44,563 bases of DNA, from positions 1 through 44,563 of IMG/VR virus record IMGVR_UViG_3300044515_000031; one strand, given 5' to 3'. The notes below the pieces were generated by a model that saw only the letters and a list, made by a program, of their open reading frames with translations, was not told the origin of the DNA and ran no database searches. The translations under genes and the position numbers were made by a program. Shown here piece by piece: positions 2,693 to 44,563 of the stretch. Position 1 is the stretch's first letter. The number at the start of each line of letters is the position of its first letter. Source of the DNA: a virus.

Positions 2693-2709
2693 CACGTCCG
2701 GCGATCTCA

Positions 2710-2730
2710 CGCGATAACCCCGTCGCGATG
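2710..2730 (+). promoter_or_regulatory. Conserved 21-nt element CGCGATAACCCCGTCGCGATG ending in the protease-capsid start codon (copy 2)
   Basis: See copy 1. The ATG at 2728 is the last triplet of the element. Confidence 0.6.
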
Positions 2731-24600: not shown

Positions 24601-25440
24601 CAGTGGACCCATGCGAGCTATACCAGCGCGGCGGACACGGGAACGGCCTCGGTAAACTGGATTGCTCCGAGCTGGGTGGGGACTTATCCATCGCCATCGG
24701 CTCCGGCAACCTTCGAGGCTCCGCGGCTTTATGTGCTCGGCGTACCGCCGCAGCAGTCCGATGCGAACTCGACGGTGACGGCAGCCTACAACACGCAATC
24801 GTTCTCGGACTTGACGGCGCTGATCGCGCAGGGAGCGCCGCTGGTTTGGGTGGACGTTCGTAACGGCAATGGAGTTATACCCGGCTTGAATCCTGGTACC
24901 GACTTCGACTCCGCACTTCACCCAAACGATCCCGGCCATCGCAAGCTGCACGATCTTGTCGAAGCTGCCGCGCAGGTTCGCGAGAATATCTTCAGGCAGG
25001 TGCTTTTCAACAACGGTAACGGCTCCGTCGCCGCGATCGAGTGTCAGATCACGACTTGCAAAGCGGGAAACGGAGTGCAGGGAGATCAGTCGTATGGATG
25101 GGCGATGAAAGATATAGCCATCACCGGCAAGATAACGGTGACGGCGCAGACTATCTATCTCCCCTCCAACACGGCCTCGACCGCTTACACTGCGACGGGT
25201 TCAGAGAACTCCATCCGCATGACGGCAAGCGCAGCTCGAACCTGCACCCTGGCCGCATCTCTATCCAGTGGCACTTCAATCAACATCAAAGATGCAGCGG
25301 GGACTGCCGGCACCGGCAACATCACCATATCCGTCGCATCGTCAGGAACAATCGACGGGTCGTCGACGCTGGTCATCAATACAAACTTCGGTGTCGCGCA
25401 CGTCAGGTGGATCTCGGCAGGTGTGTACGAAACGTTCTAG
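21661..25440 (+). CDS. Large Sec-signal protein with three collagen-like Gly-X-Y blocks (tail fiber or exported surface protein)
   Basis: 1259 aa. The signal-like N-terminus is MLKLVTRSLARLIFGLLILGLAISAHA/QS. GXY runs lie at 22117-22176, 22324-22515 and 22651-22770. There are internal domain repeats (LNGLSLIVQSVSGTSFTV / LNGVTLNITSRTGTTITA). A terminator follows. Confidence 0.8.
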   Translation: MLKLVTRSLARLIFGLLILGLAISAHAQSPPTLINFLGSGCFKDASGTAIQNGELRIQPSSAFKFGSGGQGSSDVIVRTITAGSMDSTLQLANPALTSPLSIGFTVWVKNLRTNNVDVYKNVPIAPDGSGNFDWCQLNTGFYVPNVPHAVLVGPPGPQGPQGAAGTGGTGSGFTLRGAWAPSTTYAAADILTNGGQTYEVATGFTSGSVFAATNLSLWAAKGADGAPGATGSAGATGSAGATGATGATGATGPAGPTGPTGPTGSAGATGSAGGTGATGAPGANGSTWFAAAGAPSNGADAVGDFYLNTTTGDVSQKTAPTTWTFRENIMGPAGPTGPTGSTGATGPTGPTGPTGATGSTGATGAPGAGGTVNTQTAGTGGVTVNTFVSTDTSAPSKFITSGLGSVGSGVALSSAAANSTFTLSDPVGTVQVTTDAGGAIAGHLIGGSTATAGLAMDLAQTSSLNICIETGIFGTALTTVSGGALVTVNPRSRGSNGHKVCTVNGTAVPSAGYASAYVTSFARSLDYTAVGTSITNQTGASNVTVGPNNTTFAGSIGYRLGGVFTNGGISGGETSDIQKLAIYQIPYIPAKRAPLMTLEDATNNANETAGFSAARCASSTPVCLALYSIQHQAAMAFMSIPSDNYNGTTLTLAWASTTTYLSGDVASSGGLNYIATGGVSNAAANLNKTPASNAGYWSIYVPPTYYKIGAQTSTNITGAFIPDVSLSSSNVSNTPQALGEISSANGASIMLSVPTPAGNPIEFVHRIMDGNGGTASVTIDGSAPSSNSTINGFAAGSAVIKSFSQANNDTYALISYPTTATGAACIPATSALTSNVATVTCTTAFTGSVNQAVSFLNMNNLAFLNGLSLIVQSVSGTSFTVNFTHANVTSAAEVNYATATPGHALLVTVSSTPTDVSITNVAVAANVVTLTATNTLTAGQSILIHGLGTATFLNGVTLNITSRTGTTITAAGTASGAGNGQWTHASYTSAADTGTASVNWIAPSWVGTYPSPSAPATFEAPRLYVLGVPPQQSDANSTVTAAYNTQSFSDLTALIAQGAPLVWVDVRNGNGVIPGLNPGTDFDSALHPNDPGHRKLHDLVEAAAQVRENIFRQVLFNNGNGSVAAIECQITTCKAGNGVQGDQSYGWAMKDIAITGKITVTAQTIYLPSNTASTAYTATGSENSIRMTASAARTCTLAASLSSGTSINIKDAAGTAGTGNITISVASSGTIDGSSTLVINTNFGVAHVRWISAGVYETF
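22117..22770 (+). repeat. Coding triplet repeats (collagen-like GXY), three blocks
   Basis: Blocks are GPPGPQGPQGAAGTGGTGSG; GADGAPGATGSAGATGSAGATGATGATGATGPAGPTGPTGPTGSAGATGSAGGTGATGAPGANG; and GPAGPTGPTGSTGATGPTGPTGPTGATGSTGATGAPGAGG. Confidence 0.9.
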
Positions 25441-25457
25441 CTGGCTAGTCCGGATAA

Positions 25458-25480
25458 AGCCGCCCACGCGGGCGGCTTTT
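25458..25480 (+). terminator. Intrinsic terminator
   Basis: AGCCGCCC-ACGC-GGGCGGCT followed by TTTT. Confidence 0.75.
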
Positions 25481-25490
25481 CTGCGTCTGA

Positions 25491-25512
25491 ATGCGACCCA
25501 CCGTATGCGACC
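25491..25512 (+). repeat. Two direct ATGCGACC repeats (putative integrase arm-type sites, left arm)
   Basis: ATGCGACC occurs at 25491-25498 and 25505-25512. The same TGCGACC core recurs twice at 25721-25749 in the same orientation. Confidence 0.55.
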
Positions 25513-25560
25513 AAAATCTAAACCGCACGAATCGCCTGTAACTGCGGTGCTAAAACAGAT

Positions 25561-25588
25561 CGGGGTTCGAATCCCTGGGGGGCAACCA
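25561..25588 (+). other. tRNA 3'-end-like segment (T-arm, acceptor 3' strand, discriminator, CCA): putative attP core
   Basis: CGGGG-TTCGAAT-CCCTG is followed by GGGGGCA, A and CCA. No complementary 5' acceptor strand or anticodon arm lies upstream, so this is a fragment and not a gene. Confidence 0.6.
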
Positions 25589-25675
25589 AGAGACTAACGC
25601 AACCCCGCTGAATACGCGGCGATTGCATCACACCCGCTCCCTGAGCGGGTTTCGTCGTTAAGGAGTATTTTCTCT

Positions 25676-27121
25676 GTGATGCCCTCTCTTCTCTCTAACT
25701 CCCTAATTTCGCCCTCAAATGTGCGACCACGCCGTAGCCGTGCGACCACGGAAACCGGATGCCATTCGATTCGTGTTGTCCGCAAGGTGAAGATCGCCGG
25801 CCGCTGGGTGTTTGCTACGGCTCCGATCGGAACAAGCGGCCGTCCGGAAGTCGGCTATGTGATCTATCGAGGCGAAAGAGTGAAGGTCGACGGAGGGACC
25901 TTTTACCTGGATAGCGGCAGCAAGCGAACGCGGAAGTCTGTCGCTTGCGGGACGGACCCCGAGGGTGTTTATCGCGCGATGAAGACCCAGGGGCATGTCC
26001 TCGCGCTGCGGCGCAGCGGCATGGACGTTGACGATGCGCCGGAGATCGTCGACAACCGGCGACGCAGCGAAAGCAGCCTCGGCGATGTTTACCAGGAGTT
26101 CAAGGACGCGCCGCCGGGCGGCTTCACCGTCAAGACCGTAAAGAAATACCGCAACGCGCTGTTGACGTTCAAGACTTGGAGCGCCGAGCGTGGCGTGACG
26201 TATGTGTCCGATGTAACGCCGAAACTGATCACGCGCTGGATCTCGCACCTGCAGCATGTTGAAGGCCTCGACGCGAGCACCGTCGTGCCGAAGGTGCGGA
26301 TCGTGATGGCGGAGCTGAAGGCGTACGGCGTCACCATCAAACTAGCCGATCGCGACCTGCCGACGATTGTGGAGCGTGAGCGCGAGATCTATATCGTCGA
26401 GCAGCTCGACCAACTACTGGCCGCGTGCGACCTGGACGAGTACGAGCTTGTCCAGACGTTCCTGCTTACCGGCATGCGCCGCAGGGAAGTGGCGTTTCTG
26501 AGCTATCCCGATATCGACCCGGTGAGCTGCACAGCGAAGGTCACCGCGAAGCGCCAAATGGGCTTCATCCCAAAGGCTTACCACGAGAGGATTATCCCAA
26601 TTCCGCGCTCGCTGGTGGATCTGTTGCAGGCGCGTGGAATCCGGCACGCGACCGACGGCGCCGGCCTGATCTATGGGACCTCGCGAAAGTGGCGCGGCCG
26701 CGGCGGCAAAGCCGATGGGAAACTGCTCGAAAAACTGAAGCAGATTGCCAGGCGGAGCGGGCTGAACTGTGGGCATTGCATCGGGACCTACGAAGGCCAG
26801 CCGGTGACGTGCGCGACGCATGCATGCTGCCGCCGATGGGGGCTGCACAAGTTTCGGCACACCTACGCCACCTCGATGCTGCGGGACAACGTCGATATCG
26901 TGACGCTGAGCAAATGGCTGGGACACAAAGACCTGGCCACTACGCGCATTTATCTTCGAGCTCTCGAAGCGGAGTGGGCACAGCCGCAGGTGGAGCGTTC
27001 GATGCTTGCGGTTCGATTCGGGCAGATGCCGGTACCGGCGGAGCGGGAGACAAAACCGCGAGCGCCGCGTCCGCCAAAAAGAGATAGTCATCCGCGGGCA
27101 GCGGCGGCAGACCTTCCTTAG
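25676..27121 (+). CDS. int: Tyrosine integrase
   Basis: 481 aa. AAGGAG lies 9 nt before GTG 25676 (ATG at 25679). Catalytic motifs are LLTGMRRREV (R), HKFRHTYAT (HxxR), WLGH and TTRIY (Y). Confidence 0.9.
   Translation: MMPSLLSNSLISPSNVRPRRSRATTETGCHSIRVVRKVKIAGRWVFATAPIGTSGRPEVGYVIYRGERVKVDGGTFYLDSGSKRTRKSVACGTDPEGVYRAMKTQGHVLALRRSGMDVDDAPEIVDNRRRSESSLGDVYQEFKDAPPGGFTVKTVKKYRNALLTFKTWSAERGVTYVSDVTPKLITRWISHLQHVEGLDASTVVPKVRIVMAELKAYGVTIKLADRDLPTIVEREREIYIVEQLDQLLAACDLDEYELVQTFLLTGMRRREVAFLSYPDIDPVSCTAKVTAKRQMGFIPKAYHERIIPIPRSLVDLLQARGIRHATDGAGLIYGTSRKWRGRGGKADGKLLEKLKQIARRSGLNCGHCIGTYEGQPVTCATHACCRRWGLHKFRHTYATSMLRDNVDIVTLSKWLGHKDLATTRIYLRALEAEWAQPQVERSMLAVRFGQMPVPAERETKPRAPRPPKRDSHPRAAAADLP
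25721..25749 (+). repeat. Two direct GTGCGACCAC repeats (putative arm-type sites, right arm, inside the int 5' end)
   Basis: GTGCGACCAC occurs at 25721-25730 and 25740-25749. Confidence 0.55.
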
Positions 27122-27773
27122 CCCAGGCCGCGCGGATCTCCGCGGAGATTGCGCTGGCTTCCTGGAGGCGCGCGGCGAATGTCCGTTGGTCGCCATCGGC
27201 GGCTGCTTTGCGTGCGGCGACCATCTTCGAGCAGTAGCGCGTCTCCAGGGCGATCGATTCCTTTTCGGCTGATGCGCTGCGCTGCTGCAGGGTCGGCACC
27301 GGGGGGTCGCAGTAACGGCGCTGAAACTCCTGGTCCTCGAGCACACTGAGGAGCTGAAACATCTTCGAGAGCAAATCCTGCGCGGTGCTGAAGAGGATGT
27401 TTACTTCGTTGCGAGAGAAGCGGATATCGGGGGTGAGCGATTCGTGATCGCCGGCGCGGAAGTCGCGCGGCACGAAGACCCGAAGTTTGCGGCGCCGCGG
27501 ACGGGGCGGGGAATGGCGGATCGCCTCGAGGTGGGAGCTGAGGTCCTCGGCGTCGATGCACTGGCCGATGAAGTCCAGCAGGTCCTCGCGCTCGACGACG
27601 GCCGAGTTCTGCTGCTCGAACCGCGGCATCAGCTGGACCAACTGCTTGGCCGCCGCCTTCTTTACCCGGAACAACTTCTCGATCTCGTCGCGGGTGTAGG
27701 GAGTGCGTGCCGACTCGCTCACTTGGCGGTGAATTTCGGCGAGACGTGGGTGCCAGGAAATGGATCGTGCCAT
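26940..27773 (-). CDS. Hypothetical protein convergent with int
   Basis: 277 aa with protein-like composition in the N-terminal ~200 aa. The last ~60 codons overlap the int 3' end on the opposite strand, so one of the two tails may be over-extended. Confidence 0.55.
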   Translation of the reverse strand: MARSISWHPRLAEIHRQVSESARTPYTRDEIEKLFRVKKAAAKQLVQLMPRFEQQNSAVVEREDLLDFIGQCIDAEDLSSHLEAIRHSPPRPRRRKLRVFVPRDFRAGDHESLTPDIRFSRNEVNILFSTAQDLLSKMFQLLSVLEDQEFQRRYCDPPVPTLQQRSASAEKESIALETRYCSKMVAARKAAADGDQRTFAARLQEASAISAEIRAAWAKEGLPPLPADDYLFLADAALAVLSPAPPVPASARIEPQASNAPPAAVPTPLRELEDKCA

Positions 27774-27835
27774 AGGTGCTCTGAAGGGCTAAGCGGCTGT
27801 GAGGTCGAGGTTTGGGATCACGGTGCAGGGAAGGG

Positions 27836-27861
27836 GATAAATAGCCGATCGGCCATTTATC
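27836..27861. promoter_or_regulatory. 26-bp near-perfect palindrome GATAAATAGCCGATCGGCCATTTATC upstream of the 27773 gene
   Basis: Read directly from the sequence, with one mismatched pair. It lies 63-88 nt upstream of the minus-strand start at 27773. Confidence 0.5.
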
Positions 27862-28086
27862 GTTTCTGGGGTCGAAAGAGGGGAGTGTTGATTATTGAGT
27901 TACATTTCCCATAACGATGATTATGGGAAGCGGTTTCTGGACGTTCTGAAACCCGCTTTTGACCTGGTCGACGCATCGTTCGATACCTCCGGAGCGGCCG
28001 TTTTCGACTGCTGGTTTGGGCTGCAAGTTGTTGCGCGTTGCAGGCCTGGGAGAGCTAACCCGAAACGTCGCGCGGATGACCTACGC

Positions 28087-28683
28087 TCACTCGGCCATGA
28101 TCGTGCGATAGAACCTGTCGACCTTCGCCACGCTTTTTGCAGCCATGCGCTTCTTACCGAACTGAATGCTGTTTCCCACCCCGAGGCGGTGTGCCAGCTC
28201 ACATTTGGTAAAGCCCTCTCTGAGCAGCTCCCTGATTTGTTTCCATGCGGGGCTGGCGTCGATATAGGCGCCGTCGCGTGCGGCCTGCGCCGTAACGTCG
28301 AGGATCTTCCGTGAGGTCCGCGCTCGAATTCGCATCCTCCTGCCGCTTTTGATTTCGACGATGATGGTCTCGGCCACGTCGCTGGCTTCCGCTATGGACC
28401 GTCTTCCGACGCCCGCACTCGATAACGCAAGGATGTGCATCCTGGCACTTTCTGCCGAAACGACGCCATTCCAATCCCCGGCCTTCCGAGCGGCCGCACG
28501 CCCAACTTCGTAGGAAGAATTCGCAGCTCGACACTGCAGGCATTTGCAGCCGCCGATATAGCGCATCCGCGTTCCGTGAGGCTTGCTCTGTCCTAGCCGT
28601 TCTGCGTTCTCGGCCAGGTAGTCGGTCCTTATAGCAGCGCGCAGTCTCGAGTCATCTCTGCGATTTACTTCTGAGATATTCAT
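28087..28683 (-). CDS. DNA-binding protein with an HGT..Y..GC.C..C motif and two HTH-like segments
   Basis: 198 aa. Motifs are HGTRMRYIGGCKCLQCRAANSSY, GVGRRSIAEASDVAETII and GFTKCELAHRLGVGNSIQ. The start overlaps the upstream recombinase stop. Confidence 0.7.
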   Translation of the reverse strand: MNISEVNRRDDSRLRAAIRTDYLAENAERLGQSKPHGTRMRYIGGCKCLQCRAANSSYEVGRAAARKAGDWNGVVSAESARMHILALSSAGVGRRSIAEASDVAETIIVEIKSGRRMRIRARTSRKILDVTAQAARDGAYIDASPAWKQIRELLREGFTKCELAHRLGVGNSIQFGKKRMAAKSVAKVDRFYRTIMAE

Positions 28684-29597
28684 GCTCTGCCTCTCTGTCC
28701 TCGTGGGTGGAATTTTGCGTGGGCGTCCTGCAGGTGCCCGGCCGAAACTTTGGTGTAGATCTGCGTCGTCGCGATCGAGGCGTGGCCGAGCAGCTCCTGG
28801 ATGGCGCGGAGGTCGGCGCCGTTCGACAGCATGTGCGTCGCGCAGCTGTGGCGTAGGCGGTGCGGGTACATATTCTCTTCCCCGCCCAGGGCGGAGATGA
28901 TCTGGTGGACGCGCCGGCGCGTGAGTTGACCGCCATGGTTACTGAGTACCAGGGCGCGCTGTTTGCCTCGGCCCAGCTTCAGCAGCTGCGGCCGCGCGTA
29001 GCGCATGTAGTTATCGAGCGCCATGACGGCCGAGTCGCCCAGTGGGACGATGCGTTCCTTGTCGCCCTTCCCTCTTACGCGCGCACTGCCGACCGAGACG
29101 TCGCCCTCGCGCAGGCCGCAGAGCTCGCTGACGCGGATGCCGCCGCCATAGAGCAGCTCGAGGATGGCGTAGTCGCGGATCGCCAGCGTGCCGGCGCCCT
29201 CCATCGACGCGGCCGAGGCGCTGAGCTGGATGATCTCGCGGAGTTGGTCTTCTTCGACCGGGCGAGGCAAACGTTTGGGTAGTTTCGGTGTTACAGCCAA
29301 ACGTGTGGGGTCGACGCTGAGGCGCTCGGCACGAATAAGCCAGCCATAGAACCGGCGCATCGCGGAGAGTTTGCGGGCGCGCGACTGCGGCTTGATGTCG
29401 TGCTTGGCGAGATGCAGGATGAAGTGGGCCACGTCTTCCTTCGTCGCGGTGAACAAAATGGAGTCGCGCTTTTCGAGGATCTCGGCGAACTGAAACAGAT
29501 CCGTCGAGTAGGCGCCGACGGTGTTGGTGCTGAGGCCGCGCTCGATGCGGAGATGGATGGCGTATTCCTGGACCAGCTCGACGTTGCCGTTGGCCAT
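28680..29597 (-). CDS. Tyrosine recombinase, XerC/XerD-like
   Basis: 305 aa. The N-terminus YAIHLRIERGLSTNTVGAYSTDLFQF resembles the XerD core-binding domain. Catalytic motifs are GGIRVSEL (R), HRLRHSCATH (HxxR), LLGH and TQIY (Y). Confidence 0.9.
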   Translation of the reverse strand: MANGNVELVQEYAIHLRIERGLSTNTVGAYSTDLFQFAEILEKRDSILFTATKEDVAHFILHLAKHDIKPQSRARKLSAMRRFYGWLIRAERLSVDPTRLAVTPKLPKRLPRPVEEDQLREIIQLSASAASMEGAGTLAIRDYAILELLYGGGIRVSELCGLREGDVSVGSARVRGKGDKERIVPLGDSAVMALDNYMRYARPQLLKLGRGKQRALVLSNHGGQLTRRRVHQIISALGGEENMYPHRLRHSCATHMLSNGADLRAIQELLGHASIATTQIYTKVSAGHLQDAHAKFHPRGQRGRA

Positions 29598-29602
29598 GCG
29601 AT

Positions 29603-29920
29603 CTACTTCATGGCTCGGCGTGCGGAGCTCGCCAGGTGGGGATTGCTGTGGGCGAGCTGGTCATACCAGGCCTTGGGGTCAATGGTGATGACGTCCCAGC
29701 CTAGGTCGGCGGGTGGAATTTTGCCCAGCTTGATCTGTTTGTAGATCGTCTTGACGCTGCAACCGAGGATCTCGGCCGCGTCTTGCACCGAGAGGCATCG
29801 CCTGGTGCGCTTAAGTGTGGCCAGCAACGAGAACGGCTCGCCCGGGATCGGTTCCGGCAGGCCGCTCCTGGATGAGGGACGGCCAGGAGTGCGGCTCTGA
29901 ACGTGGCGGGACTTTACCAT
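29603..29920 (-). CDS. Excisionase-family / MerR-like HTH protein
   Basis: 105 aa. LSVQDAAEILGCSVKTIYKQIKLGKIPP is a typical excisionase-type HTH. It ends 5 nt before the recombinase start. Confidence 0.75.
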   Translation of the reverse strand: MVKSRHVQSRTPGRPSSRSGLPEPIPGEPFSLLATLKRTRRCLSVQDAAEILGCSVKTIYKQIKLGKIPPADLGWDVITIDPKAWYDQLAHSNPHLASSARRAMK

Positions 29921-30075
29921 GCCGAAACCGCCTGTATGTGGGAGTGCCTGCAGTCCTTGTCACACGCCCATTCGCCAGGGCCAAAGTGCAGCATCAAGCC
30001 TTTGAGCCTGACCATTCCGCAGTTGTCGCATTTGCGGAGTGGGCTGCTCATCAGCCACGCGATGAGGTTGTACAT
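29914..30075 (-). CDS. Small CxxC...CxxxC zinc-ribbon-like protein (53 aa; below the ORF-track cutoff)
   Basis: My own translation is MYNLIAWLMSSPLRKCDNCGMVRLKGLMLHFGPGEWACDKDCRHSHIQAVSAW. The stop overlaps the next start (ATGGTAA). A purine-rich GAGAGG lies upstream. Confidence 0.4.
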   Translation of the reverse strand: MYNLIAWLMSSPLRKCDNCGMVRLKGLMLHFGPGEWACDKDCRHSHIQAVSAW

Positions 30076-30173
30076 CAGGCCGCCTCTCGGGTGTACGCGC
30101 CGCTCGTGTAAGCTTGGCGGCTATGAGAAATCTCTGTGTTCTGCTCATACGCGCCGCCGCGCGTGTTTCCTAG

Positions 30174-30866
30174 ATGGCGCGGCGTGGGTTCCTGAACGTT
30201 CTGATTTACCAGCTCGTGCGCGCGCTGATGGGGCGAAAGCGAAAGCCACACTTTGTCCCGAAGTGGACGGCGAAGTTGCAGCCGTGGCAGCTTGATAAGC
30301 CTTTGCGGAAAAGCAAGCCGCGAAGCCAGGAAGAGTTTGTCAGAGATATGCAAGCTCTGGCCGCGGAGACGGGCGATACATCCCTCCAGGTTATGGTGCC
30401 ATCTGGAAGACGAACCAAACCCAATAACCTGGAGTTTTTCCCTCTCAACTCGCCAACGCAATTGAAGAGTGCAACTCCATTTGTGAGCGCAAATGTTCGC
30501 ATCGACCACGTTCAGTACGGGTTTCATGCTTACGTGCATCCCAGGTCGCACCGCGATTCCACATACTGGCTCTATTACGTCGTCAGCGGCCCGGACAACG
30601 TGGACGGCAGCCAAGGCGAACATCAAATCACCGACGAGTTCAGATGGACTGGTGAACGCGCCTGGAACCCTTTGTTGGTGAAAACTGCGTTGCGGCAATG
30701 GGTGACTAGACCCGAGGTGGTTGCGGCCATTGCGCTCGCGAAAACCAATCTCCCGGAGGGTCCCGCGATTCCTCGGAAGCCCGCTCTCGATGCCGAGGAC
30801 TATGAGGCGAAGATGGTGAAATACAACCAGCAGTGCGAAGCCTTTTCTCGTTGGCCGGAGAAGTAG
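30174..30866 (+). CDS. Hypothetical protein (lower-GC segment)
   Basis: 230 aa. Its composition is more protein-like than the overlapping minus-strand ORF 30075..30872. Confidence 0.5.
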   Translation: MARRGFLNVLIYQLVRALMGRKRKPHFVPKWTAKLQPWQLDKPLRKSKPRSQEEFVRDMQALAAETGDTSLQVMVPSGRRTKPNNLEFFPLNSPTQLKSATPFVSANVRIDHVQYGFHAYVHPRSHRDSTYWLYYVVSGPDNVDGSQGEHQITDEFRWTGERAWNPLLVKTALRQWVTRPEVVAAIALAKTNLPEGPAIPRKPALDAEDYEAKMVKYNQQCEAFSRWPEK

Positions 30867-30874
30867 AGCCATGG

Positions 30875-31132
30875 CTAGCTCGCTCTCCTTAGCTGTGCCG
30901 CCGAGCCTGAAGACTTCTTTTCAGGCGTCAGATAATCTTCGGGAAAAAGAATCTGATCGCGCGTTACGGCGTTGCCAAAATACTTCGCGATCTGATTGGC
31001 AACATGTGGACTGGGCACCGTTTCTCCAATCTCCACGCGCCGATAGTGACTAGGATTGATTCCGAGGGCGACAGCAACCTCACGTGAGGTTAAGCGCCGG
31101 TCCTCGCGATATGTCTTCAATGGTGTATTCAT
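30875..31132 (-). CDS. XRE-family HTH regulator (leftward; CI-like candidate)
   Basis: The ORF is open to 31180. The likely start is ATG 31132, with GGAAGAGGG upstream. RRLTSREVAVALGINPSHYRRVEIGE is a classic XRE HTH. Confidence 0.75.
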   Translation of the reverse strand: MNTPLKTYREDRRLTSREVAVALGINPSHYRRVEIGETVPSPHVANQIAKYFGNAVTRDQILFPEDYLTPEKKSSGSAAQLRRAS

Positions 31133-31229
31133 CAGAACCCTCTTCCTATGGTTTATCGCACCATAAGAATGGTGTGTCAAGCCCTAAAACATGTGTGGTG
31201 TAACACACCATTGATTGACAAAATGAGGC
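31133..31229. promoter_or_regulatory. Divergent switch region with operator palindromes and a leftward promoter candidate
   Basis: CACCATAAGAATGGTG lies at 31159-31174 and TGGTGTAACACACCA at 31196-31210. There is also a 10-bp inverted pair, AATGGTGTGT 31168-31177 with ACACACCATT 31203-31212. On the minus strand, TTGACA (31180-31175) is followed by a 17-nt spacer holding the first palindrome, then GATAAA (31157-31152). Confidence 0.6.
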
Positions 31230-31619
31230 ATGGACATCGTCGGTGGGAATATCCGAAAGATCAGGAAGGCCCGCGGACTGCTCCAGAAGCAGCTGGCAGA
31301 CCTCGCCAAGATGGACCCTAGTAATTTGTCCAAGCTCGAGCGCGGCGACTACACCTGGACGAAGGAGAACCTCGAACGGATCGCCAACGCTTTAGGCGTG
31401 ACCATCGGCGAGTTGTTCGAACCAAGTGATGGTCGCGCGGTTTCGCCATCAGCGTCCGTCGCCGACCAGGCTGTTACGCTGGGCTCGATTGATGCACGCT
31501 TGGCCGAGTTGACGCGTATGGTGCGCGATGGTTTCGCCCGCACTGCGCCGACGGAGATCGACAAAGTTATTCTGCGAGAAGTCCCCAAAAACGAGCGTGC
31601 CGTGCCGCGGCGAGTCTGA
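31230..31619 (+). CDS. XRE-family HTH regulator (rightward; Cro-like or early regulator candidate)
   Basis: 129 aa. RKARGLLQKQLADLAKMDPSNLSKLERGD is a classic XRE HTH. Confidence 0.8.
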   Translation: MDIVGGNIRKIRKARGLLQKQLADLAKMDPSNLSKLERGDYTWTKENLERIANALGVTIGELFEPSDGRAVSPSASVADQAVTLGSIDARLAELTRMVRDGFARTAPTEIDKVILREVPKNERAVPRRV

Positions 31620-31778
31620 GATAGACGCATGCTTCCATAAATTAGACCCAACAGAAGTCCGCGAATAATTTTGCGGGTGCCATGTTGTGCGCACCAGATG
31701 GCTTGACAAACCATATTGAAGGTGTAATAAACCTTCTAGCGGTAGATCGCCATTTCTTGTGCAATTGGGGCATTGAGT

Positions 31779-32021
31779 ATGTCGAGCCGAATGCCAGTTA
31801 CGTCCCTCGCCGCGCCAGGATGGCTAACGACGGCGCGGCGTCTCTACCGCTTCATGGACCGTCCGATCGGCTGTTTGAGCTACAAAGCGAAGTTTTGTCT
31901 GGTGTTTTACACGGTCCTGCTGTTGATCGTGCTGTGGGCGGTGTCGTTATGCGATGCCAATTTGCCGGATTCCGGCGCGCTGAACGATTGTCGCGTGGGG
32001 GATCTCCTACTTGAGCGTTAA
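31779..32021 (+). CDS. Small membrane protein (hypothetical)
   Basis: The ORF is open from TTG 31773, with ATG at 31779. It has one strong TM helix, FCLVFYTVLLLIVLWAVSL. Third-position GC is higher than in the competing frame 31682..32014. Confidence 0.35.
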   Translation: MSSRMPVTSLAAPGWLTTARRLYRFMDRPIGCLSYKAKFCLVFYTVLLLIVLWAVSLCDANLPDSGALNDCRVGDLLLER

Positions 32022-33483
32022 GGTGGCAGCAGCAGTACTGGAACGGGGCCCGGAAAATTCCGGCGAACGATTTACTCTCTTCGTCCTGGCTTTCCAGGCA
32101 GACGACCTCGGCTTCTATGCCGAGGAAATAAAGATTCTTCAAAAAGACCTGTCGTGCTCGAAGGAGACGATCCTTCGACATCTGGCCAGCCTAGAGAAGC
32201 AGGGCTGGCTGCGGATCGAGCGGCGCGTTCTCGGCGGGCGAAGCAGCGTGTACTTCGTGAACCTGGAGAAGCTCGGCGTCCGGGTCGGGGAGAAGCCGTA
32301 CAAGCACAAGCTCTGGGCGGATATGGAGCGCATGCGCTCGGCGCTGGACCGAGGTAACAAATTGTCACGTCAGAACGGCACCCTGAAATTCGAGCAATTC
32401 GCGGAATCCGGGGAGGTTGAGGCCAGTGGCGACCTCTTCGAAGAGGAAATCTCAGGTGACAATTTGCCACCTGACAATGAGCAAGAATCTGCTCCTGAAG
32501 AGGGCGAAACAGACGATTCCGAGGAGTTTGAGGCCCAAACCGCCCAAAATGAGGGTGAAACGGTCTACCGGAAGGAACAGGAGCCTCCGGAGGAAGAAAT
32601 CTCAGGTGGCAAATTGCCACCTGTCAGGTACGGAAATAGTCACCTGTCAGGTGGCAATTTACCGGACCCCTTTAATACAAGTCGTAAGAGTCGTACTTTC
32701 GTAGAAACAACTACCCCCCTACCCCCCGTCCCGGGGGATGGCGGCGATGAGTTGATTTTGCCGAAGGACGATCTTCGCGTCGGCGATGCCGAGTTCCCTC
32801 TCGCGATCGGCGTGGCCGCTCGCTGGGTGATGCAAAAACGCGGCTTGTCAAAGCGGCGGCTGCAGGACACCATCGCCGAGCAGCTCGCGCTGTTCTGCCG
32901 GCAGGAAGATAAAAACCTGCAGGAGGCCGCGCAGATCGCGGCGGCGAACCATGAGAAATACACGGCCGACGTTCCCCTGCTCCGCTTCGGGCCGTGGAGT
33001 CCAGCGAATTTTTACGGCGAGGGCCACTGGCGGAATCCGTCGGCGTGGCCATACGACCAGGCCAAGGTCCGCGCCTCGTCCGAGGCTGCGATCGGGATGC
33101 AGAAGCTCGCCGCCAGCGAAACCGACGCCGAGTACCGAGTTCGCGTCGCCGAGTTCATCGACGGGAATGCCGATCGTCTGGCGGAGATCGGCGGCTTCGA
33201 CGGTGTCGTCGCGAAGCTGCGAGCCCTGCCGCAGGAGATGGACCTCGGCGCCCTCGACATCGAGCTCGACGACATCGAGAGCGAAATGATCAAGGCGGCG
33301 TGGGGTAGCTCGGAACCCGCAGTGCTCGCCACGCGGCAAGTCGTCGAAGCGGAGATATCCGTCGAGAAGGGATATCCGAAGGATTCGATCAACCGGCTCC
33401 GGCTCCAGGTCCTCTCCGGTCGCCTGTTCGGCAAACACGAGTTTCCGCGGCTCACGCTGCGCTGCATTCCGCGGAGAACCTGA
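32011..33483 (+). CDS. Replication initiator (N-terminal winged-helix, lambda O-like organisation with internal origin)
   Basis: 490 aa. The start is ambiguous (TTG 32011 or GTG 32023). The N-terminus FTLFVLAFQADDLGFYAEEIKILQKDLSCSKETILRHLASLEKQGWL is an HTH_36/DnaD-like wHTH. Iterons lie in the acidic linker. Confidence 0.75.
   Translation: MSVKVAAAVLERGPENSGERFTLFVLAFQADDLGFYAEEIKILQKDLSCSKETILRHLASLEKQGWLRIERRVLGGRSSVYFVNLEKLGVRVGEKPYKHKLWADMERMRSALDRGNKLSRQNGTLKFEQFAESGEVEASGDLFEEEISGDNLPPDNEQESAPEEGETDDSEEFEAQTAQNEGETVYRKEQEPPEEEISGGKLPPVRYGNSHLSGGNLPDPFNTSRKSRTFVETTTPLPPVPGDGGDELILPKDDLRVGDAEFPLAIGVAARWVMQKRGLSKRRLQDTIAEQLALFCRQEDKNLQEAAQIAAANHEKYTADVPLLRFGPWSPANFYGEGHWRNPSAWPYDQAKVRASSEAAIGMQKLAASETDAEYRVRVAEFIDGNADRLAEIGGFDGVVAKLRALPQEMDLGALDIELDDIESEMIKAAWGSSEPAVLATRQVVEAEISVEKGYPKDSINRLRLQVLSGRLFGKHEFPRLTLRCIPRRT
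32447..32668. repeat. Origin-like iterons inside the rep gene (half-site CAGGTGGCAA / TTGCCACCTG)
   Basis: There is an imperfect palindrome at 32453-32473, a perfect 21-bp palindrome CAGGTGGCAAATTGCCACCTG at 32603-32623, and a third half-site at 32648-32657. CACCTGTCAGGT is repeated at 32618 and 32641. A relatively AT-rich stretch follows at 32666-32715. Confidence 0.7.
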
Positions 33484-33539
33484 GCACCTGGGTACTTAGG
33501 TTCCTAAGCGCCTAAGCACCTAAGCACCCGAAGTTCCTG
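33484..33539 (+). repeat. Iteron cluster A: 7 phased 8-bp units (GYNCYTAR), forward orientation
   Basis: GCACCTGG GTACTTAG GTTCCTAA GCGCCTAA GCACCTAA GCACCCGA AGTTCCTG. The cluster starts 1 nt after the rep stop and ends 44 nt before the parA ATG. Confidence 0.85.
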
Positions 33540-33582
33540 AACTACAGAGCTGTAAACCCATTGAGCACCAGGAGCGTATCGA

Positions 33583-34179
33583 ATGAACCTCACCATAGCT
33601 GGAGATAAAGGCGGCGTCGGCAAGACTACGACGGCGCTGTGCCTGGCAGCGTACCTCAACACGCTGGCCCCGACGCTGCTGCTGGACGGCGATCGCACCA
33701 AGAATGCGGTCAACTGCGCGCGGCGGCGGCTGGACTTTCCGTTCCGCGTCGAGCCGATCGAGGCGGGGCCGATGCTGGCTCGGCAGTTCGAACACATCGT
33801 CACCGACACCGGTCAGTCCCCTACTCTCCAGCAACTGAAAGCGGCGGCCGACTGGTGCGACCTGCTGGTGATCCCGGCGAAGGCGGCGTGGTTCGACACC
33901 AACAGCCTGGCGCAGACGATCCAGTCGCTGCACGAGTTGAAGGTTACGAAGTATCGCGTGCTACTGACCCACGTCGCTCCCGACGAGGCGGCCGAGGCGC
34001 TGGAGCTGCGCCGGCTGCTGGCGTCGATTGGAGCTCCGGTCTTTCTCACCGAGATCCCGCGGCTGAAGGCCTTCAAGAAAGCGGCCGACGCCGGCACGAT
34101 CGTAAGCGCGTCGACGGACAAGAACGGCGCCCGGGCCTGGGCGGCATACGAAGCTGTCGGAAAGGAGCTCGGTCTATGA
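33583..34179 (+). CDS. parA: Small ParA-type partition ATPase (type Ib, ParF-like size)
   Basis: 198 aa with a deviant Walker A (GDKGGVGKTTTA). It lacks an N-terminal HTH. AGGAG lies upstream. Confidence 0.9.
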   Translation: MNLTIAGDKGGVGKTTTALCLAAYLNTLAPTLLLDGDRTKNAVNCARRRLDFPFRVEPIEAGPMLARQFEHIVTDTGQSPTLQQLKAAADWCDLLVIPAKAAWFDTNSLAQTIQSLHELKVTKYRVLLTHVAPDEAAEALELRRLLASIGAPVFLTEIPRLKAFKKAADAGTIVSASTDKNGARAWAAYEAVGKELGL

Positions 34180-34493
34180 AGGATAGAGTCTCGAACCTCG
34201 AAAGCGCATTCGCCGGGATGAGCCGTGCGGCCGAGTCCCCACACGCTCAAGCACCTAAGCGCTCAGGTGCTCAGGTACCTAAGCCCCTAAGCACCGGAGC
34301 GCCTAAGCGCCCAAGCACCCAGGCGCTCCCGCTTCAGGGTACAGGCAAAAGCAGCCATCCCGACTTTGAGGCGTTCAAGGTCTATCTGCGCACGGCCACG
34401 AAGCGGGCGGCCGCGCGGAAGTTCGAGGACGAGACCGGCGGCGACTTCTCGGATCTGTGCGAGAAGCTGCTGGCCGAGTACTTAGGCGCTTAG
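34176..34493 (+). CDS. Small partner protein of ParA (centromere-binding protein candidate, ParG-like size)
   Basis: 105 aa with an ATGA overlap to parA. The middle is an 8-aa-periodic Pro/Lys-rich segment encoded by iteron cluster B. The C-terminal ~45 aa (FEAFKVYLRTATKRAAARKFEDETGGDFSDLCEKLLAEYL) could be an RHH fold. Confidence 0.7.
   Translation: MKDRVSNLESAFAGMSRAAESPHAQAPKRSGAQVPKPLSTGAPKRPSTQALPLQGTGKSSHPDFEAFKVYLRTATKRAAARKFEDETGGDFSDLCEKLLAEYLGA
34243..34338 (+). repeat. Iteron cluster B: about 12 phased 8-bp units, forward orientation, inside the coding sequence
   Basis: ACGCTCAA GCACCTAA GCGCTCAG GTGCTCAG GTACCTAA GCCCCTAA GCACCGGA GCGCCTAA GCGCCCAA GCACCCAG GCGCTCCC GCTTCAGG. 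Confidence 0.85.
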
Positions 34494-34533
34494 GGCGCTA
34501 GGTGCTTAGGTGCCTGAGTACCTAAGCCCCGGA
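34482..34533. repeat. Iteron cluster C: five reverse units (TTAGGNGC type) then two forward units
   Basis: TTAGGCGC TTAGGGCG CTAGGTGC TTAGGTGC CTGAGTAC, overlapping GTACCTAA GCCCCGGA. Orientation switches at GTAC 34518-34521. The cluster spans the stop at 34491-34493 and ends at the SD of the next gene. Confidence 0.8.
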
Positions 34534-34542
34534 AGGAGCGAG

Positions 34543-34758
34543 ATGAAGATAACGATCGAATCAACGGACATCATTACGGACATCGATGGGGTCATGTGCC
34601 GCGTGTGGCGCGGCGTGACCGAACGCGGTGTGCAGTGTGATCTGGCTATCCCTCGGCTGCGTGTGTTGCGTGAAGACGACCATCGGGAGTTTGAAGACGA
34701 ACTGGCGGCGCTGCCTTCAGGCCGGATGCCGCCACGCAATTTCGAGGATAGGTTTTAG
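34543..34758 (+). CDS. Hypothetical small protein flanked by iteron clusters C and D
   Basis: 71 aa. GGAAGGAG lies upstream of ATG 34543. Confidence 0.55.
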   Translation: MKITIESTDIITDIDGVMCRVWRGVTERGVQCDLAIPRLRVLREDDHREFEDELAALPSGRMPPRNFEDRF

Positions 34759-34802
34759 GGGCTTAGGGCGTTAGGCGCTTAGGTACCTGAGTACCTGGGC
34801 GA
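34755..34802 (-). repeat. Iteron cluster D: 6 phased 8-bp units, reverse orientation
   Basis: TTAGGGGC TTAGGGCG TTAGGCGC TTAGGTAC CTGAGTAC CTGGGCGA. This is the mirror image of cluster A. Confidence 0.85.
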
Positions 34803-34817: not shown

Positions 34818-35096
34818 ATGGAGAAGGAAATAGCTGTAGTGGCGATGGGTGAGCTCGTACGGGTGATGGTGAAGTCCATCGTCGACGAGCCGAACGAAGT
34901 GACGGTTTCGGTGGATACGCGGAACGTCGGTCGCGTGCTGCTGACCGTGGATGTAGCGCCGAACGACCTTGGCAAGGTGATCGGGAAGCAAGGCAGGAAC
35001 GCGCGCGCGTTGCGAACGATCCTGGGAGCGGCTGGCATGGCCTTCGGAGTGCCGTCGTCGCTGAACATCCGGGAAGGCGACGGCGATGCCCACTGA
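34818..35096 (+). CDS. KH-domain RNA-binding protein (KhpA/YlqC-like)
   Basis: 92 aa. LVRVMVKSIVDEPNEVTVSVDTRNVGRVLLTVDVAPNDLGKVIGKQGRNARALRTIL matches the UPF0109/KhpA pattern, including the GKVIGKQGR (GxxG) loop. Confidence 0.75.
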   Translation: MEKEIAVVAMGELVRVMVKSIVDEPNEVTVSVDTRNVGRVLLTVDVAPNDLGKVIGKQGRNARALRTILGAAGMAFGVPSSLNIREGDGDAH

Positions 35097-40718: not shown

Positions 40719-40861
40719 ACTTCCACTTCCATGAACCCCATCCGTGCCGCTAAGTGCCGTATTTGCAACACTGGCCGTCTCGGTTCGTGGAAGTAGACGC
40801 CGTTTTCGCGGAAGTGACACCCTCCGAAATGACTTCCACGAATGTGACCGACTTCCACGAA
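40719..40861. repeat. Five copies of ACTTCCAC(GAA) in both orientations: cosB-like small-terminase binding sites
   Basis: Plus-strand copies are at 40719-40726, 40832-40842 and 40851-40861. Minus-strand copies are TTCGTGGAAGT at 40784-40794 and TTCGCGGAAGT at 40805-40815. The last copy ends 17 nt before the Nu1-like start. Confidence 0.65.
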
Positions 40862-40878
40862 CGGTGCTACATCTGCGC

Positions 40879-44325: not shown

Positions 44326-44563
44326 ATGGCCAAACTCACCGCGACGATCACGTGCTCGGTCAGGGCCAGCTTTCTACTGCTCTGGTTGAAGCGCTTGGAG
44401 ATCGAAGTTCCTCCGCCTCTCGGCCATCACCATTCGCTCAGCTTCGCGCAATTTGGGAGCGACGAAAAGGGTTGGGAAGACCGCCTCTGCTTGGAGGTGA
44501 GGGCGAGCAATGGTTCGCAGAAGTTCTTCCTCAATGATCAGGACATGGTCCCCGAAACGTTCG
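44326..44563 (+). CDS. 5' part of the junction-spanning small ORF (continues at 128..171 of the window)
   Basis: ATG 44326 follows GGAGG at 44317-44321. See feature 1..171. Confidence 0.45.
   Translation, partial: MAKLTATITCSVRASFLLLWLKRLEIEVPPPLGHHHSLSFAQFGSDEKGWEDRLCLEVRASNGSQKFFLNDQDMVPETF
44437..44563. repeat. Terminal direct repeat, copy 2 (identical to 1..127)
   Basis: Same as copy 1. Confidence 0.95.

Follow-up and report, generated by a model that had tools for sequence, protein, structure and literature searches.

The genome described here belongs to a temperate siphovirus of soil Acidobacteriaceae and carries an integrase, a partition cassette and a dimer-resolution-like module together, a recurrent design that suggests a stable free-circle phase. 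The window (the whole 44,563-nt stretch of DNA that was analysed) is circular and non-integrated: an exact 127-bp overlap joins its ends into a circular assembly with a unique part of 44,436 bp, and its gene order is of the phage (excised) type, with attP between the tail fibre gene and int. The integration, Xer and replication/partition modules are all present and intact, and each of their elements stands above chance. The coexistence of three maintenance modules noted in an earlier sequence-only reading was thereby borne out, each being distinct, of the kind named and at or near the place assigned to it. The accompanying generalization, that a phage normally keeps to a single strategy, must allow for published exceptions, as phages with both integrase and par genes were already reported earlier. 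According to PMC7969092, phage P88 is integrated, yet has par and rep genes, and Utter 2014 is cited there as a further exception; a glacial phage has an integrase plus ParAB (PMC4490671). P88 likewise integrates and has par and rep, but belongs to an unrelated proteobacterial group.

Integration at tRNA-Gln and the integrated relatives

The attachment region and integrase comprise the following features.
25491..25512, plus strand: left (P-arm) arm-type repeats, ATGCGACC twice, with two of four clustered TGCGACC copies
25558..25591, plus strand: attP core, 34 bp, the 3′ end (T-arm, acceptor, CCA and 3 nt) of a Terriglobales tRNA-Gln(CTG)
25721..25750, plus strand: right (P′-arm) arm-type repeats, GTGCGACCAC twice, upstream of the int start
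25787..27121, plus strand: tyrosine integrase (Int1), 444 aa as called; PF00589 6e-15, phrog_1 1e-30

The Int1 start was placed at 25787, not 25676, by subtraction from the 444-aa database gene call. TGCGACC occurs 10 times in 44.5 kb, and four copies, all on the plus strand, flank the attP core (25492, 25506, 25722 and 25741). The related contig L128 has GTACAACCACG twice at the place equivalent to the right arm repeats of the window, and the arm repeats are kept in position between the two genomes. The 23-nt core gave at least 120 exact matches in the genome collection, with titles that all name Acidobacteriota but for one 'bacterium' and one 'Verrucomicrobiae' MAG; ten of these loci were scanned with ARAGORN, which found tRNA-Gln(CTG) in all ten and no whole tRNA in the window. 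Identity with a host tRNA extends over 34 bp in Granulicella sp. L46 and 33 bp in an Edaphobacter MAG, so that the tRNA 3′-end fragment noted beside the integrase does have its host counterpart. The attP consists of a 30-34-bp tRNA core between arm-type repeats.

An integrated relative at a tRNA gene had been predicted, and L125 is one. With the same three modules, it reads: host genes, a complete tRNA-Gln, Int (61% identical), a conserved 277-aa protein (p277), Xer (53%), an HTH_17 gene, a pair of XRE regulators, Rep, ParA and the ParA partner. The tRNA-Gln core is found at the L125 prophage junction and also in attP of L128 and L219. L220 has the L125-type design but is integrated at tRNA-Ser, as are L124, within a 4.9-Mb chromosome, and L217; L001 is integrated at tRNA-Cys. 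Int1 homologues adjoin complete tRNA genes in chromosomal contigs, and all long relatives with chromosomal context are integrated. Comparison of the relatives shows that the lineage inserts into the 3′ ends of tRNA genes by means of a lambda-type tyrosine integrase, here at tRNA-Gln.

These data bear on the idea of an obligate plasmid prophage, a classical phage-plasmid with a vestigial integrase and tRNA fragment, which we consider very unlikely. Its support is the excised order of the clade to which the window belongs, seen in each of the five contigs (window, L128, L129, L130 and L219). However, the Int1 frame runs uninterrupted at full length, and its PF00589 catalytic domain is complete. 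The attP core agrees exactly, over 34 bp, with the tRNA of a living host, and the arm repeats are conserved in position. In the next clade (61% Int), 4/4 long contigs show integration at this very tRNA-Gln.

The sequence-only reading had also entertained a recent hybrid. The combination of Int, ParA and a small protein, often accompanied by an Xer gene, recurs with integrases just 42-78% identical and at four different tRNA sites, so the design is conserved across the lineage. Acidobacterial plasmids do carry ParA homologues, as a recent hybrid or an assembly chimera of integrative phage and plasmid would have it; but about 20 independent contigs, taken from different studies and with proteins 42-90% identical, show this gene order, and there is no step in G+C content at the par cassette. 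The comparative data contradict this origin, and we give it almost no credence.

The Xer recombinase and its candidate site

The Xer, HTH_17 and 198-aa genes form a set of three leftward genes, listed here with further conserved elements towards int.
26940..27773, minus strand: p277, with its start facing the dif-like site
27836..27861, unstranded: conserved 26-bp palindrome GATAAATAGCCGATCGGCCATTTATC with outer arms ATAAAT/ATTTAT
27904..27931, unstranded: dif-like 28-bp site ATTTCCCATAA-CGATGA-TTATGGGAAGC (11-6-11), a near-perfect palindrome
28087..28683, minus strand: 198-aa gene, overlapping the Xer stop; phrog_1590
28680..29597, minus strand: XerC/D-family tyrosine recombinase; PF00589 1.6e-40 plus SAM_1
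29603..29920, minus strand: HTH_17/excisionase-family DNA-binding protein; PF12728 3.8e-9

The phage Xer matches XerD from end to end (1A0P, 2e-53), conserves all six of the residues that we take to be catalytic in the Xer family, and scores 297 against NF001399 (cut-off 279); it falls below the XerC and XerD equivalog cut-offs. The HTH_17 protein, which scores 25.0 against TIGR01764 (cut-off 28.8) and is also encoded in relatives lacking Xer (L124, L001 and L217), is a likely excision factor. The slot of the 198-aa gene is variable, being filled in relatives by two genes (148+96 aa), a collagen-like gene of 132 aa, or genes of 91, 73 or 69 aa.

The dif-like site is unique in the window (0 expected at three or fewer mismatches) and lies at the same position in L125-L130, L219 and L220. 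Its arms change together, and symmetrically, in three related clades, and it matches predicted acidobacterial dif sites at 18-20 of 28 positions. It is probably the target of the phage Xer. Homologues of p277, which gave no family match, are 48-74% identical in L125-L130, L219 and L220, where they keep their place with respect to int and the dif-like site; weaker ones (29-35%) occur in L002, L205, L211 and L213. The outer arms of the 26-bp palindrome are kept in four relatives, while its inner bases vary.

Judged from this arrangement, the Xer module appears self-contained, with one XerD-like recombinase and a nearby palindromic dif-like site. It resembles the single-recombinase systems XerS/difSL, XerH/difH and archaeal XerA/dif in having one enzyme, a site linked to its gene and an 11-6-11 site layout, and such linkage may be a hallmark of these systems (PMC5357621). 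Those systems, in contrast, resolve chromosomal dimers, whereas the window's is phage-borne, with an almost perfectly palindromic site and a predicted activity. We also weighed a second integration route in the manner of IMEX elements, in which the chromosomal dif of the host would serve as another target besides tRNA-Gln. The site and the predicted acidobacterial dif have 9/11 left-arm positions and a CATAA-N6-TTATG core in common, and IMEX attP sites are typically like dif on the XerC side and unlike it on the XerD side (PMC5357621). Yet the integrated L125 and L220 each have one dif-like site, intact and inside the prophage, and are joined to the host at the tRNA beside Int1; classical IMEX elements rely on host enzymes, without an Xer of their own; and the mirror-image arms of the phage site fit one enzyme on both arms of one site. 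We regard this second route as unlikely.

Initiator, partition cassette and 8-bp arrays

The early-right region contains the regulators, the initiator and the par cassette.
30875..31180, minus strand: XRE-type HTH regulator
31230..31619, plus strand: XRE-type HTH regulator
32011..33483, plus strand: lambda-O-like replication initiator (Rep); phrog_391 'replication initiation O-like' 3.5e-11, weak HTH_36
32352..32715, unstranded: intragenic origin inside the Rep gene, four iterons followed by an A+T-richer stretch
33476..33531, unstranded: centromere-like array 1, about seven 8-bp units (NCCTAAGC), upstream of parA
33583..34179, plus strand: small ParA ATPase, 198 aa, with deviant Walker A KGGVGKTT and no N-terminal HTH
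34176..34493, plus strand: small partner protein ('ParG-like'), its start overlapping the parA stop (ATGA)
34245..34327, unstranded: array 2, about ten 8-bp units, within the coding sequence of the partner's tail
34474..34533, unstranded: array 3, 8-bp units mostly inverse (CTTAGG)
34510..34758, plus strand: 82-aa gene between arrays 3 and 4, with homologues in L002, L124, L130 and L214
34752..34801, unstranded: array 4, 8-bp units inverse

The rightward XRE regulator is without the S24 peptidase domain present in the relatives' versions. The iterons of Rep are four dyad-symmetric sites of about 21 bp at 32352, 32453, 32603 and 32642 (span to 32663), none of them expected by chance, and the Rep genes of relatives contain iterons of their own, of 21-23 bp. 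In phage lambda, O has an N-terminal DNA-binding domain, and the origin consists of four dyad-symmetric iterons and an A+T-rich stretch inside the O gene. The window is alike in that Rep matches phrog_391 and the four-iteron origin lies inside Rep's own gene; it differs from lambda in that no P-like helicase loader was recognised downstream of Rep, where ParA stands instead, nor was any helicase loader identified. Since the window's Rep is an initiator of the phage lambda-O type and differs in kind from a plasmid Rep, it is no evidence for a plasmid state.

ParA matches CbiA (7.5e-12), phrog_164 (4e-21) and PDB 3CWQ (6e-38), and its Walker A motif and aspartates D35 and D75 are invariant among 29 homologues. 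It is 54% identical to the ParA of Granulicella plasmid pACIX904, where the gene adjoins RepA, and 58% identical to one on an 89-kb contig with RepA_C and type IV secretion genes and therefore a conjugative plasmid. By homology, then, ParA is of the plasmid-partition kind, its relatives at 54-58% being par genes of acidobacterial plasmids, in keeping with its reading as a partition ATPase; against this, it scores below the NCBIfam partition equivalog cut-off. Within INPHARED, no known phage has a ParA of this family. The partner protein, in which the C-terminal ~50 aa are conserved and a PK-rich tail is variable, gave no Pfam or PDB match, and a ribbon-helix-helix fold was looked for but not confirmed.

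The array periodicity is 8 bp and not codon-based, even within coding sequence: array 2 reaches identities of 0.65/0.59/0.63 for lags of 8/16/24, compared with 0.16-0.28 for lags of 3-12. CCTAAG/CTTAGG hexamers fall in the four arrays in 14/15 cases genome-wide. Their concentration at the par locus repeats in L001, L002, L129, L204 and L214, and arrays of 8-bp period are also found in L125 and L124. The arrays bracket three separate genes and stand before a KH gene.

With a small ParA, a coupled small putative DNA-binding partner and four unspaced 8-bp arrays, the cassette appears type-Ib-like. Type Ib is defined by a small ParA, a divergent partner downstream and short unspaced repeats (PMC3074162). 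Like TP228 ParF-ParG-parH, pSM19035 delta-omega and pCXC100 ParAB, the window has a small Walker ParA without HTH, a short partner gene directly downstream whose product has a flexible N-terminal tail and a sequence beyond homology recognition, and a centromere of short unspaced repeat arrays upstream of parA (PMC3074162, PMC3130281). It departs from them in the partner's unconfirmed fold, in having four arrays rather than one, with one inside the partner's own coding sequence, and in that the host replicon is an integrating phage.

Integration and a possible free-circle phase

We lean, at about an even chance, towards a primarily integrative lineage with facultatively episomal lysogeny, in which the par and Xer sets keep a low-copy circle inherited. 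The plasmid-style set is present, and from it we infer the corresponding function. The partner protein would coat the 8-bp arrays, ParA would then spread circular phage copies over the nucleoid, and Xer, acting on both identical arms of the dif-like site, would turn dimers into monomers; together the two sets would give stable inheritance of a low-copy circle while it is outside the chromosome. Such a phase could fall before integration or after non-lytic excision, and also where the host's tRNA-Gln site differs or is already taken. The circular assembly could equally stem from virion or replicating (lytic) DNA, and as circularity of a contig is no demonstration of maintenance as a plasmid, the 'switchable lifestyle' suggested earlier is best called plausible. 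Among plasmid records no relative turned up, TerL having no acidobacterial match in PLSDB. The contrary outcomes named beforehand were degenerate rep and par genes in integrated copies, free circles with no matching host tRNA, and a non-partition ParA; none of these was found, and the integrated relatives keep rep and par genes intact.

A strictly integrative phage, whose par and Xer modules serve not plasmid inheritance but lytic growth or regulation, is a possible alternative to which we assign a lesser but real chance. Here the partner protein would be a repressor and the arrays operators around early-right genes; the role of ParA would be to order the phage DNA during replication or, through incompatibility, to keep related elements out, and Xer would resolve theta-replication dimers ahead of packaging. 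Every relative with chromosomal flanks is indeed integrated, the cassette directly follows an O-like initiator in the early-right region, the arrays bracket genes as described, and partner proteins of type Ib are known to regulate their own expression (PMC3074162). On the other side, faithful segregation and dimer resolution are not needed for lytic growth, beyond the phage group ParA has its closest relatives among the partition genes of real plasmids, the family is used by no known INPHARED phage, and four arrays with about 30 units in total are centromere-like, not operator-like.

Facultatively episomal lysogeny has partial parallels in known elements. Phage P1 is non-integrating and lacks a tRNA attP; it partitions by a type Ia system, with a large ParA and an HTH ParB, and Cre is not of the Xer family. 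The window's lineage, in contrast, demonstrably integrates, its ParA is small and type-Ib-like, and its recombinase is XerD-like with a dif-like site. Conjugative elements of the SXT/R391 and PAPI-1/ICEclc types and satellite phage P4 integrate by tyrosine integrases, often at tRNA genes, and retain extrachromosomal-phase functions despite integration; none of them is a full tailed phage with its own Xer/dif-like module. P1 is nonetheless a temperate phage that combines ParAB-parS with Cre/lox, its own recombinase and palindromic target for dimer resolution (PMC7969092), and the window too pairs ParA-type partition with its own tyrosine recombinase and palindromic site, in the latter case with a predicted role. 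Xer and ParA are not an obligate pair, because some relatives with ParA (L124) are without the Xer module, and one with Xer (L130) is without ParA.

Circular genome and integration module

The two ends of the window carry an exact direct repeat of 127 bp (1-127 and 44437-44563). Such a repeat is what a circular path leaves behind in a k=127 assembly, and because these bases are identical at both ends we read the record as a circular assembly with a unique genome length of 44,436 bp. There are no host flanks, and the genome stands in a non-integrated topology. The sequence-only reading had proposed that three maintenance modules (tRNA integration, a Xer-like recombinase, and replication with partition) coexist in this one genome; all three are present, and the Xer gene is accompanied by a dif-like site.

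Features of the window
171-1802: portal
2665-4866: fused protease and major head protein
7930-10563: tape measure
13330-17619: J-like tail protein
21661-25440: collagen-like fibre
25558-25591: att core
25787-27121 (+): Int1, tyrosine integrase
26940-27773 (-): p277, 277-aa protein
27904-27931: dif-like site
28680-29597 (-): Xer, XerC/D-family recombinase
29603-29920: HTH_17 protein
32011-33483 (+): Rep, lambda-O-like initiator
33583-34179 (+): ParA
34176-34493 (+): partner, small protein
33476-33531, 34245-34327, 34474-34533 and 34752-34801: arrays of 8-bp units
40744-43430: small and large terminase

The virion module is of the siphovirus type, and phage structural genes and plasmid-type partition genes are found together. 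The G+C content of about 62% shows no step at the integration, Xer or rep-par modules. The large terminase (TerL) shares at most 41% identity with any entry of the cultured-phage or plasmid collections, and no acidobacterial plasmid in the plasmid collection matched it. Among the virion proteins, the fibre has long collagen-like Gly-X-Y runs made of 9- and 18-bp tandem repeats, and the major head protein (733 aa) has a fused, prohead-protease-like N-terminal part.

The att core, GATCGGGGTTCGAATCCCTGGGGGGCAACCAAGA, lies 3' of the fibre-gene terminator. Its earlier identification as the 3' end of a host tRNA was borne out: in a scan of one genome per species, 23 nt of the core gave at least 120 exact matches, whose titles are all Acidobacteriota but for one 'bacterium' and one 'Verrucomicrobiae' MAG, and ARAGORN, run on ten of these loci, placed the match in each at the 3' end of tRNA-Gln(CTG). 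The attP core is thus identical to the 3' end of the Terriglobales tRNA-Gln(CTG) over up to 34 bp (Granulicella sp. L46, 34 bp; an Edaphobacter MAG, 33 bp); ARAGORN found no complete tRNA in the window. Four of the ten TGCGACC copies in the window fall within 256 bp, two on either side of the core, a clustering with a chance of roughly 1e-4 by a rough estimate. At the equivalent positions L128, a member of the window's own clade, has two copies of GTACAACCACG, as expected for arm-type sites co-evolving with their integrase. These putative arm-type repeats therefore flank the core on both sides, in a position that is kept in L128. The C-terminal catalytic domain of Int1 matches PF00589 (6e-15) and phrog_1 (1e-30) and reads HKFRH...GH...RIY. 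A gene call of 444 aa in the database makes 25787 the probable start, which leaves the right-hand arm repeats upstream of int. The HTH_17 protein (PF HTH_17, 3.8e-9) resembles excisionases, yet it stays under the curated cut-off (TIGR01764, 25.0 against 28.8).

Several relatives are integrated, and L125, L124 and L220 have a full tRNA at the int-proximal junction.

Integrated relatives (identities are to the window)
L125 (61-kb contig; integrase on contigs up to 140 kb): housekeeping genes, complete tRNA-Gln, Int (61%), p277, Xer (53%) with dif-like site, HTH_17, XRE pair, Rep with iterons, ParA, partner with 8-bp arrays
L220 (128 kb): L125-like design at tRNA-Ser
L124 (4.9-Mb chromosome): at tRNA-Ser; Int, Rep, ParA and partner; no Xer
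L217: at tRNA-Ser
L001 (218 kb): at tRNA-Cys

The suggestion to look for the element integrated at a tRNA was borne out for a relative: L125 sits at tRNA-Gln. No integrated copy of the window's own clade was recovered, and none of the 120 att-core genome loci listed has an Int1 homologue beside tRNA-Gln, a weak negative. A scan of viral contigs with Int1 alone gave one weak match, such a query reaching close relatives only.

Stand-alone 3' halves of tRNA-Gln, about 45 bp long and following unrelated sequence, occur in L014, L024, L050, L055, L058, L062, L063, L069, L073, L093 and L120. They resemble the remains of att sites from other integrative elements whose core is longer, and tRNA-Gln accordingly seems to be a hot spot for integration in Terriglobales. 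The contig L126 starts inside the att core (1-20, GAATCCCTGGGGGGCAACCA), and in L127, from another sequencing run, int lies at the same offset from the contig end. An assembly-graph branch would give such ends if the sample contained both kinds of junction, integrated and excised.

The Xer recombinase and its dif-like site

Xer aligns over its whole length (residues 9-293) with the E. coli XerD structure 1A0P (2e-53) and has SAM_1 and PF00589 domains; six positions, which we take to be the catalytic R-K-H-R-H-Y set, are all conserved in this alignment. Neither NCBIfam equivalog was reached (XerD, 294 against a cut-off of 329.6; XerC, 293 against 335), and only the 'tyrosine recombinase' subfamily NF001399 was passed (297 against 279). 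These scores indicate a Xer-family paralogue rather than the host housekeeping enzyme.

The sequence-only reading had named no target site for this enzyme. The 310-bp intergenic region between p277 and a 198-aa gene is conserved to an unusual degree, with a mean column identity of 75% when aligned with three relatives, and at 27904-27931 it contains ATTTCCCATAA-CGATGA-TTATGGGAAGC, a 28-bp site with the 11-6-11 layout of dif and a CATAA-N6-TTATG core. It is unique in the window, and shuffled sequences gave no match at three or fewer mismatches. At 18-20 of 28 positions it agrees with the dif sites that supplementary file 2 of PMC3025954 predicts for Ca. Koribacter and Ca. Solibacter. Unlike dif, however, its arms are mirror images of each other, and across three clades the arms co-vary while the core is constant.

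Arms of the dif-like site in three clades
Window clade: TTTCCCATAA...TTATGGGAAG
L125 clade: GTCTCCATAA...TTATGGAGGG
L220: TTTTACATAA...TTATGTAAAG

Co-varying arms around a fixed core would fit a single enzyme acting on both arms. For XerS and XerH, which are single-recombinase systems, linkage of site and gene has been described as a possible hallmark (PMC5357621). In unrelated, A+T-rich viral contigs the motif TTCCCATAA-N6-TTATGGGAA recurs exactly, about 55 bp away from a Xer-like gene of distant kinship (25% identity), a hint of what may be independent support for the pairing of site and enzyme. One could also suppose that Xer and its site provide an IMEX-like second route of integration; in integrated relatives the dif-like site is internal and single, and we consider this improbable.

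The A+T-rich contigs (L132-L135, L137 and L139, from IMG/VR) belong to an unrelated lineage with the site-plus-gene arrangement of the window: CTTCCCATAA-N6-TTATGGGAAG stands about 55 bp upstream of a gene for a 270-aa Xer-like protein, whose best NCBIfam match is of the archaeal XerA type, under the cut-off. No dif-like palindrome was recognisable beside the more distant Xer-like genes of L002, L205 and L208.

The slot between Xer and the dif-like site is hypervariable while its flanking genes are conserved. In the window it holds the 198-aa gene (28087-28683, minus strand), whose product matches phrog_1590 and contains the motif HGTxxxYxxGCKCxxC; in relatives it holds two genes of 148 and 96 aa, or one of 132 (collagen-like), 91, 73 or 69 aa. 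We rejected an integron-like or pdif-module reading of this slot, because there is no second site between Xer and the variable gene, whose stop and start overlap, and because the conserved intergenic block runs about 150 bp past the dif-like site.

At 27836-27861, 45 bp away from the dif-like site and some 65 bp upstream of p277, is a conserved 26-bp palindrome (GATAAAT..GATC..ATTTATC). Its outer arms are constant and its inner bases vary with pairing kept; it might serve as an operator or an accessory site, or form a hairpin. p277 itself has no family match. In the close clades and L220, homologues of 48-74% identity stand by int and the dif-like site; those of more distant relatives (29-35%) include L002 and L205, where the gene is directly beside a divergent Xer-like gene. 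p277 is a candidate accessory factor for the recombinase.

Replication origin and partition cassette

Rep (490 aa) matches the lambda-O-like initiators of phrog_391 (3.5e-11), with Pfam HTH_36 under its cut-off. Four dyad-symmetric sites of about 21 bp (32352 to 32663) are followed by an A+T-richer stretch, all within the Rep gene, and the Rep genes of relatives have iterons of 21-23 bp and different sequence in the same place. The origin is phage-type, and alone it says nothing on a plasmid state.

ParA is a small ParA/MinD-type ATPase of 198 aa with a deviant Walker A motif (KGGVGKTT) and no N-terminal DNA-binding (HTH) domain. K9, G10-G13, K14, D35 and D75 are invariant across 29 homologues. 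It passes the cut-off for CbiA and matches PDB 3CWQ (6e-38); its score for the NCBIfam ParA_partition equivalog NF041546, 68.5 bits, does not reach the cut-off of 180. The partner gene (105 aa) overlaps the parA stop with its start (ATGA, 34176-34179) and adjoins ParA in about 20 loci. In 13 homologues the C-terminal 50 or so residues of the partner are conserved, and the N-terminal tail is built of PK-rich octapeptides, whose number varies. No Pfam, PDB sequence or PDB profile match to the partner was found. An alignment-based model (mean pLDDT 57) gave an extended stretch and then two helices (pLDDT 60-79), whereas three helices came out of a single-sequence model of the 54 C-terminal residues; Foldseek matches to the partner model were meaningless, and a ribbon-helix-helix fold was not confirmed.

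Around the par genes are four arrays of unspaced 8-bp units with the consensus NCCTAAGC or its complement, one of them within the tail-coding sequence, and 14 of the 15 CCTAAG/CTTAGG hexamers in the genome fall inside the 1.3-kb par locus. Self-identity of the coding array is 0.65, 0.59 and 0.63 at lags of 8, 16 and 24, against 0.16-0.28 at lags of 3-12. This 8-bp periodicity within a coding array places the constraint on the DNA rather than on the peptide. In the partner-coding repeats of the window (34245-34327), L002 (10840-10954) and L129 (about 7800-7950), three DNA units correspond to one PK-rich octapeptide, and the octapeptides number from none to about ten among the 13 partner homologues. 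Since octapeptide number varies with the repeat units, array and protein tail expand and contract together.

What defines a type Ib partition system is a small ParA, short-repeat arrays, and a partner encoded downstream that has a flexible tail and is unrecognisable by sequence (PMC3074162, PMC3130281); the cassette of the window matches this published definition in its small ParA, downstream partner and short-repeat arrays. Among 72,556 plasmid records the best match to ParA (54%) is on pACIX904 of Granulicella tundricola, where it stands beside a small gene and RepA; another homologue (58%) lies on L216, an 89-kb contig, beside RepA_C and type IV secretion genes, as in a conjugative plasmid. 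By gene context, homologues of this ParA probably serve in plasmid par loci, and these two matches bear out the original view of it as a partition ATPase of the plasmid kind. The pACIX904 protein encoded 3' of ParA shows no homology to the partner, and that plasmid has no 8-bp arrays. A search of 50,697 phage records gave one weak match to ParA, and a scan of metagenome contigs with the ParA alignment (generic KGGVGKTT pattern) gave distant ParAs only among the matches listed. In L130 (18985-19650; Int 78%, Xer 90%) the ParA slot holds a 221-aa gene without a Pfam match, and no match to ParA or the partner was found; the par cassette is therefore replaceable within the clade.

Maintenance genes in an integrating lineage

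In the window, L128, L129, L130 and L219 the genes stand in the excised, or phage, order, with tail or lysis genes followed by attP and int; Int and Xer of the latter four are 77-78% and 87-90% identical to those of the window. The ParA-partner pair occurs on twelve further viral contigs, and the par, rep and Xer parts are intact in integrated relatives. This recurrence of the modules across integrated and excised relatives makes the design old and recurrent in an integrating lineage. It contradicts the earlier proposal of a recent hybrid, which we now find hardly credible. That the element is an obligate plasmid prophage is also highly improbable, given its intact integration module and its integrated relatives. 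The window is seen as a circular assembly only and the relatives are integrated, so we do not file it as a classical phage-plasmid in the sense of P1, N15 or SSU5; tools that call phage-plasmids from par and rep genes alone would misfile this lineage.

Going by the functions that sequence and gene context predict for ParA, its partner and Xer, these modules may stabilise a circular, replicating, non-integrated copy. We infer this role because the two conserved functions have no obvious use in lytic growth, and give it about an even chance. The main rival, which we hold to be less likely, is a strictly integrative phage that uses the cassette for regulation, for exclusion or to organise its DNA. 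More broadly, and with confidence short of even, we propose that the whole lineage of Acidobacteriaceae siphoviruses may be facultative phage-plasmids, which would integrate at a tRNA if it is free and otherwise persist as low-copy circles by means of a type-Ib-like par system and a single-Xer/dif system. In such phage-plasmids the centromere repeats would extend into the coding sequence of the binding protein and would expand and contract with its tail.

The usual division of temperate phages is between integrative prophages and phage-plasmids. Conceptual precedents exist in integrative conjugative elements with replication and partition functions and in satellite P4. Earlier work already records phages that have an integrase as well as par genes, among them P88, with the remark that some elements may oscillate between states (PMC7969092), and a glacial phage with an integrase and ParAB (PMC4490671). 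A limited literature search found no tailed phage described as combining a type-Ib-like par system with a self-encoded single-Xer/dif system, and a term search found no discussion of partition genes in two publications on prophages and viruses of Acidobacteria (PMC5900883, PMC11924767). Three things appear to be new: a lineage of tailed phages that integrates and conserves a full maintenance kit, a Xer encoded by the phage together with a palindromic dif-like site for it, and centromere-like repeats that continue through the coding sequence of the partner. An origin, partition and multimer-resolution set kept in demonstrably integrated prophages implies selection for a non-integrated, non-lytic phase and would extend the trend seen in conjugative elements to tailed phages. 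It raises the question of a heritable episomal phase in integrative prophages, for which culturable hosts exist, such as Granulicella and Edaphobacter. The tRNA-Gln integrase, the compact Xer/dif pair and the small rep-par cassette are also candidate tools for Acidobacteria, for which few genetic tools exist.

The rightward XRE regulator of the window (31230-31619, 129 aa) has no S24 domain; its counterparts carry Peptidase_S24, of the LexA/CI self-cleaving type, in L128 and L129 (207 aa), L219 (227), L124 (222) and L217 (225), where the gene is upstream of and co-oriented with rep and parA. This co-orientation could allow expression of rep-par in lysogens. An inverted repeat of 34 nt (79% complementary; 31150-31183 and 31700-31733), with TTGACA in each arm, brackets the XRE gene and may represent duplicated promoter/operator sets for the leftward and rep-par operons. 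A sigma-70 promoter scan of 27.7-35.2 kb gave zero matches and is uninformative for this phylum. Finally, a KhpA/KhpB-type KH-domain protein (34818-35096; PF13083, 1.2e-17) is kept 3' of the par cassette in most relatives, a KH RNA-binding domain being unusual for a phage early region.
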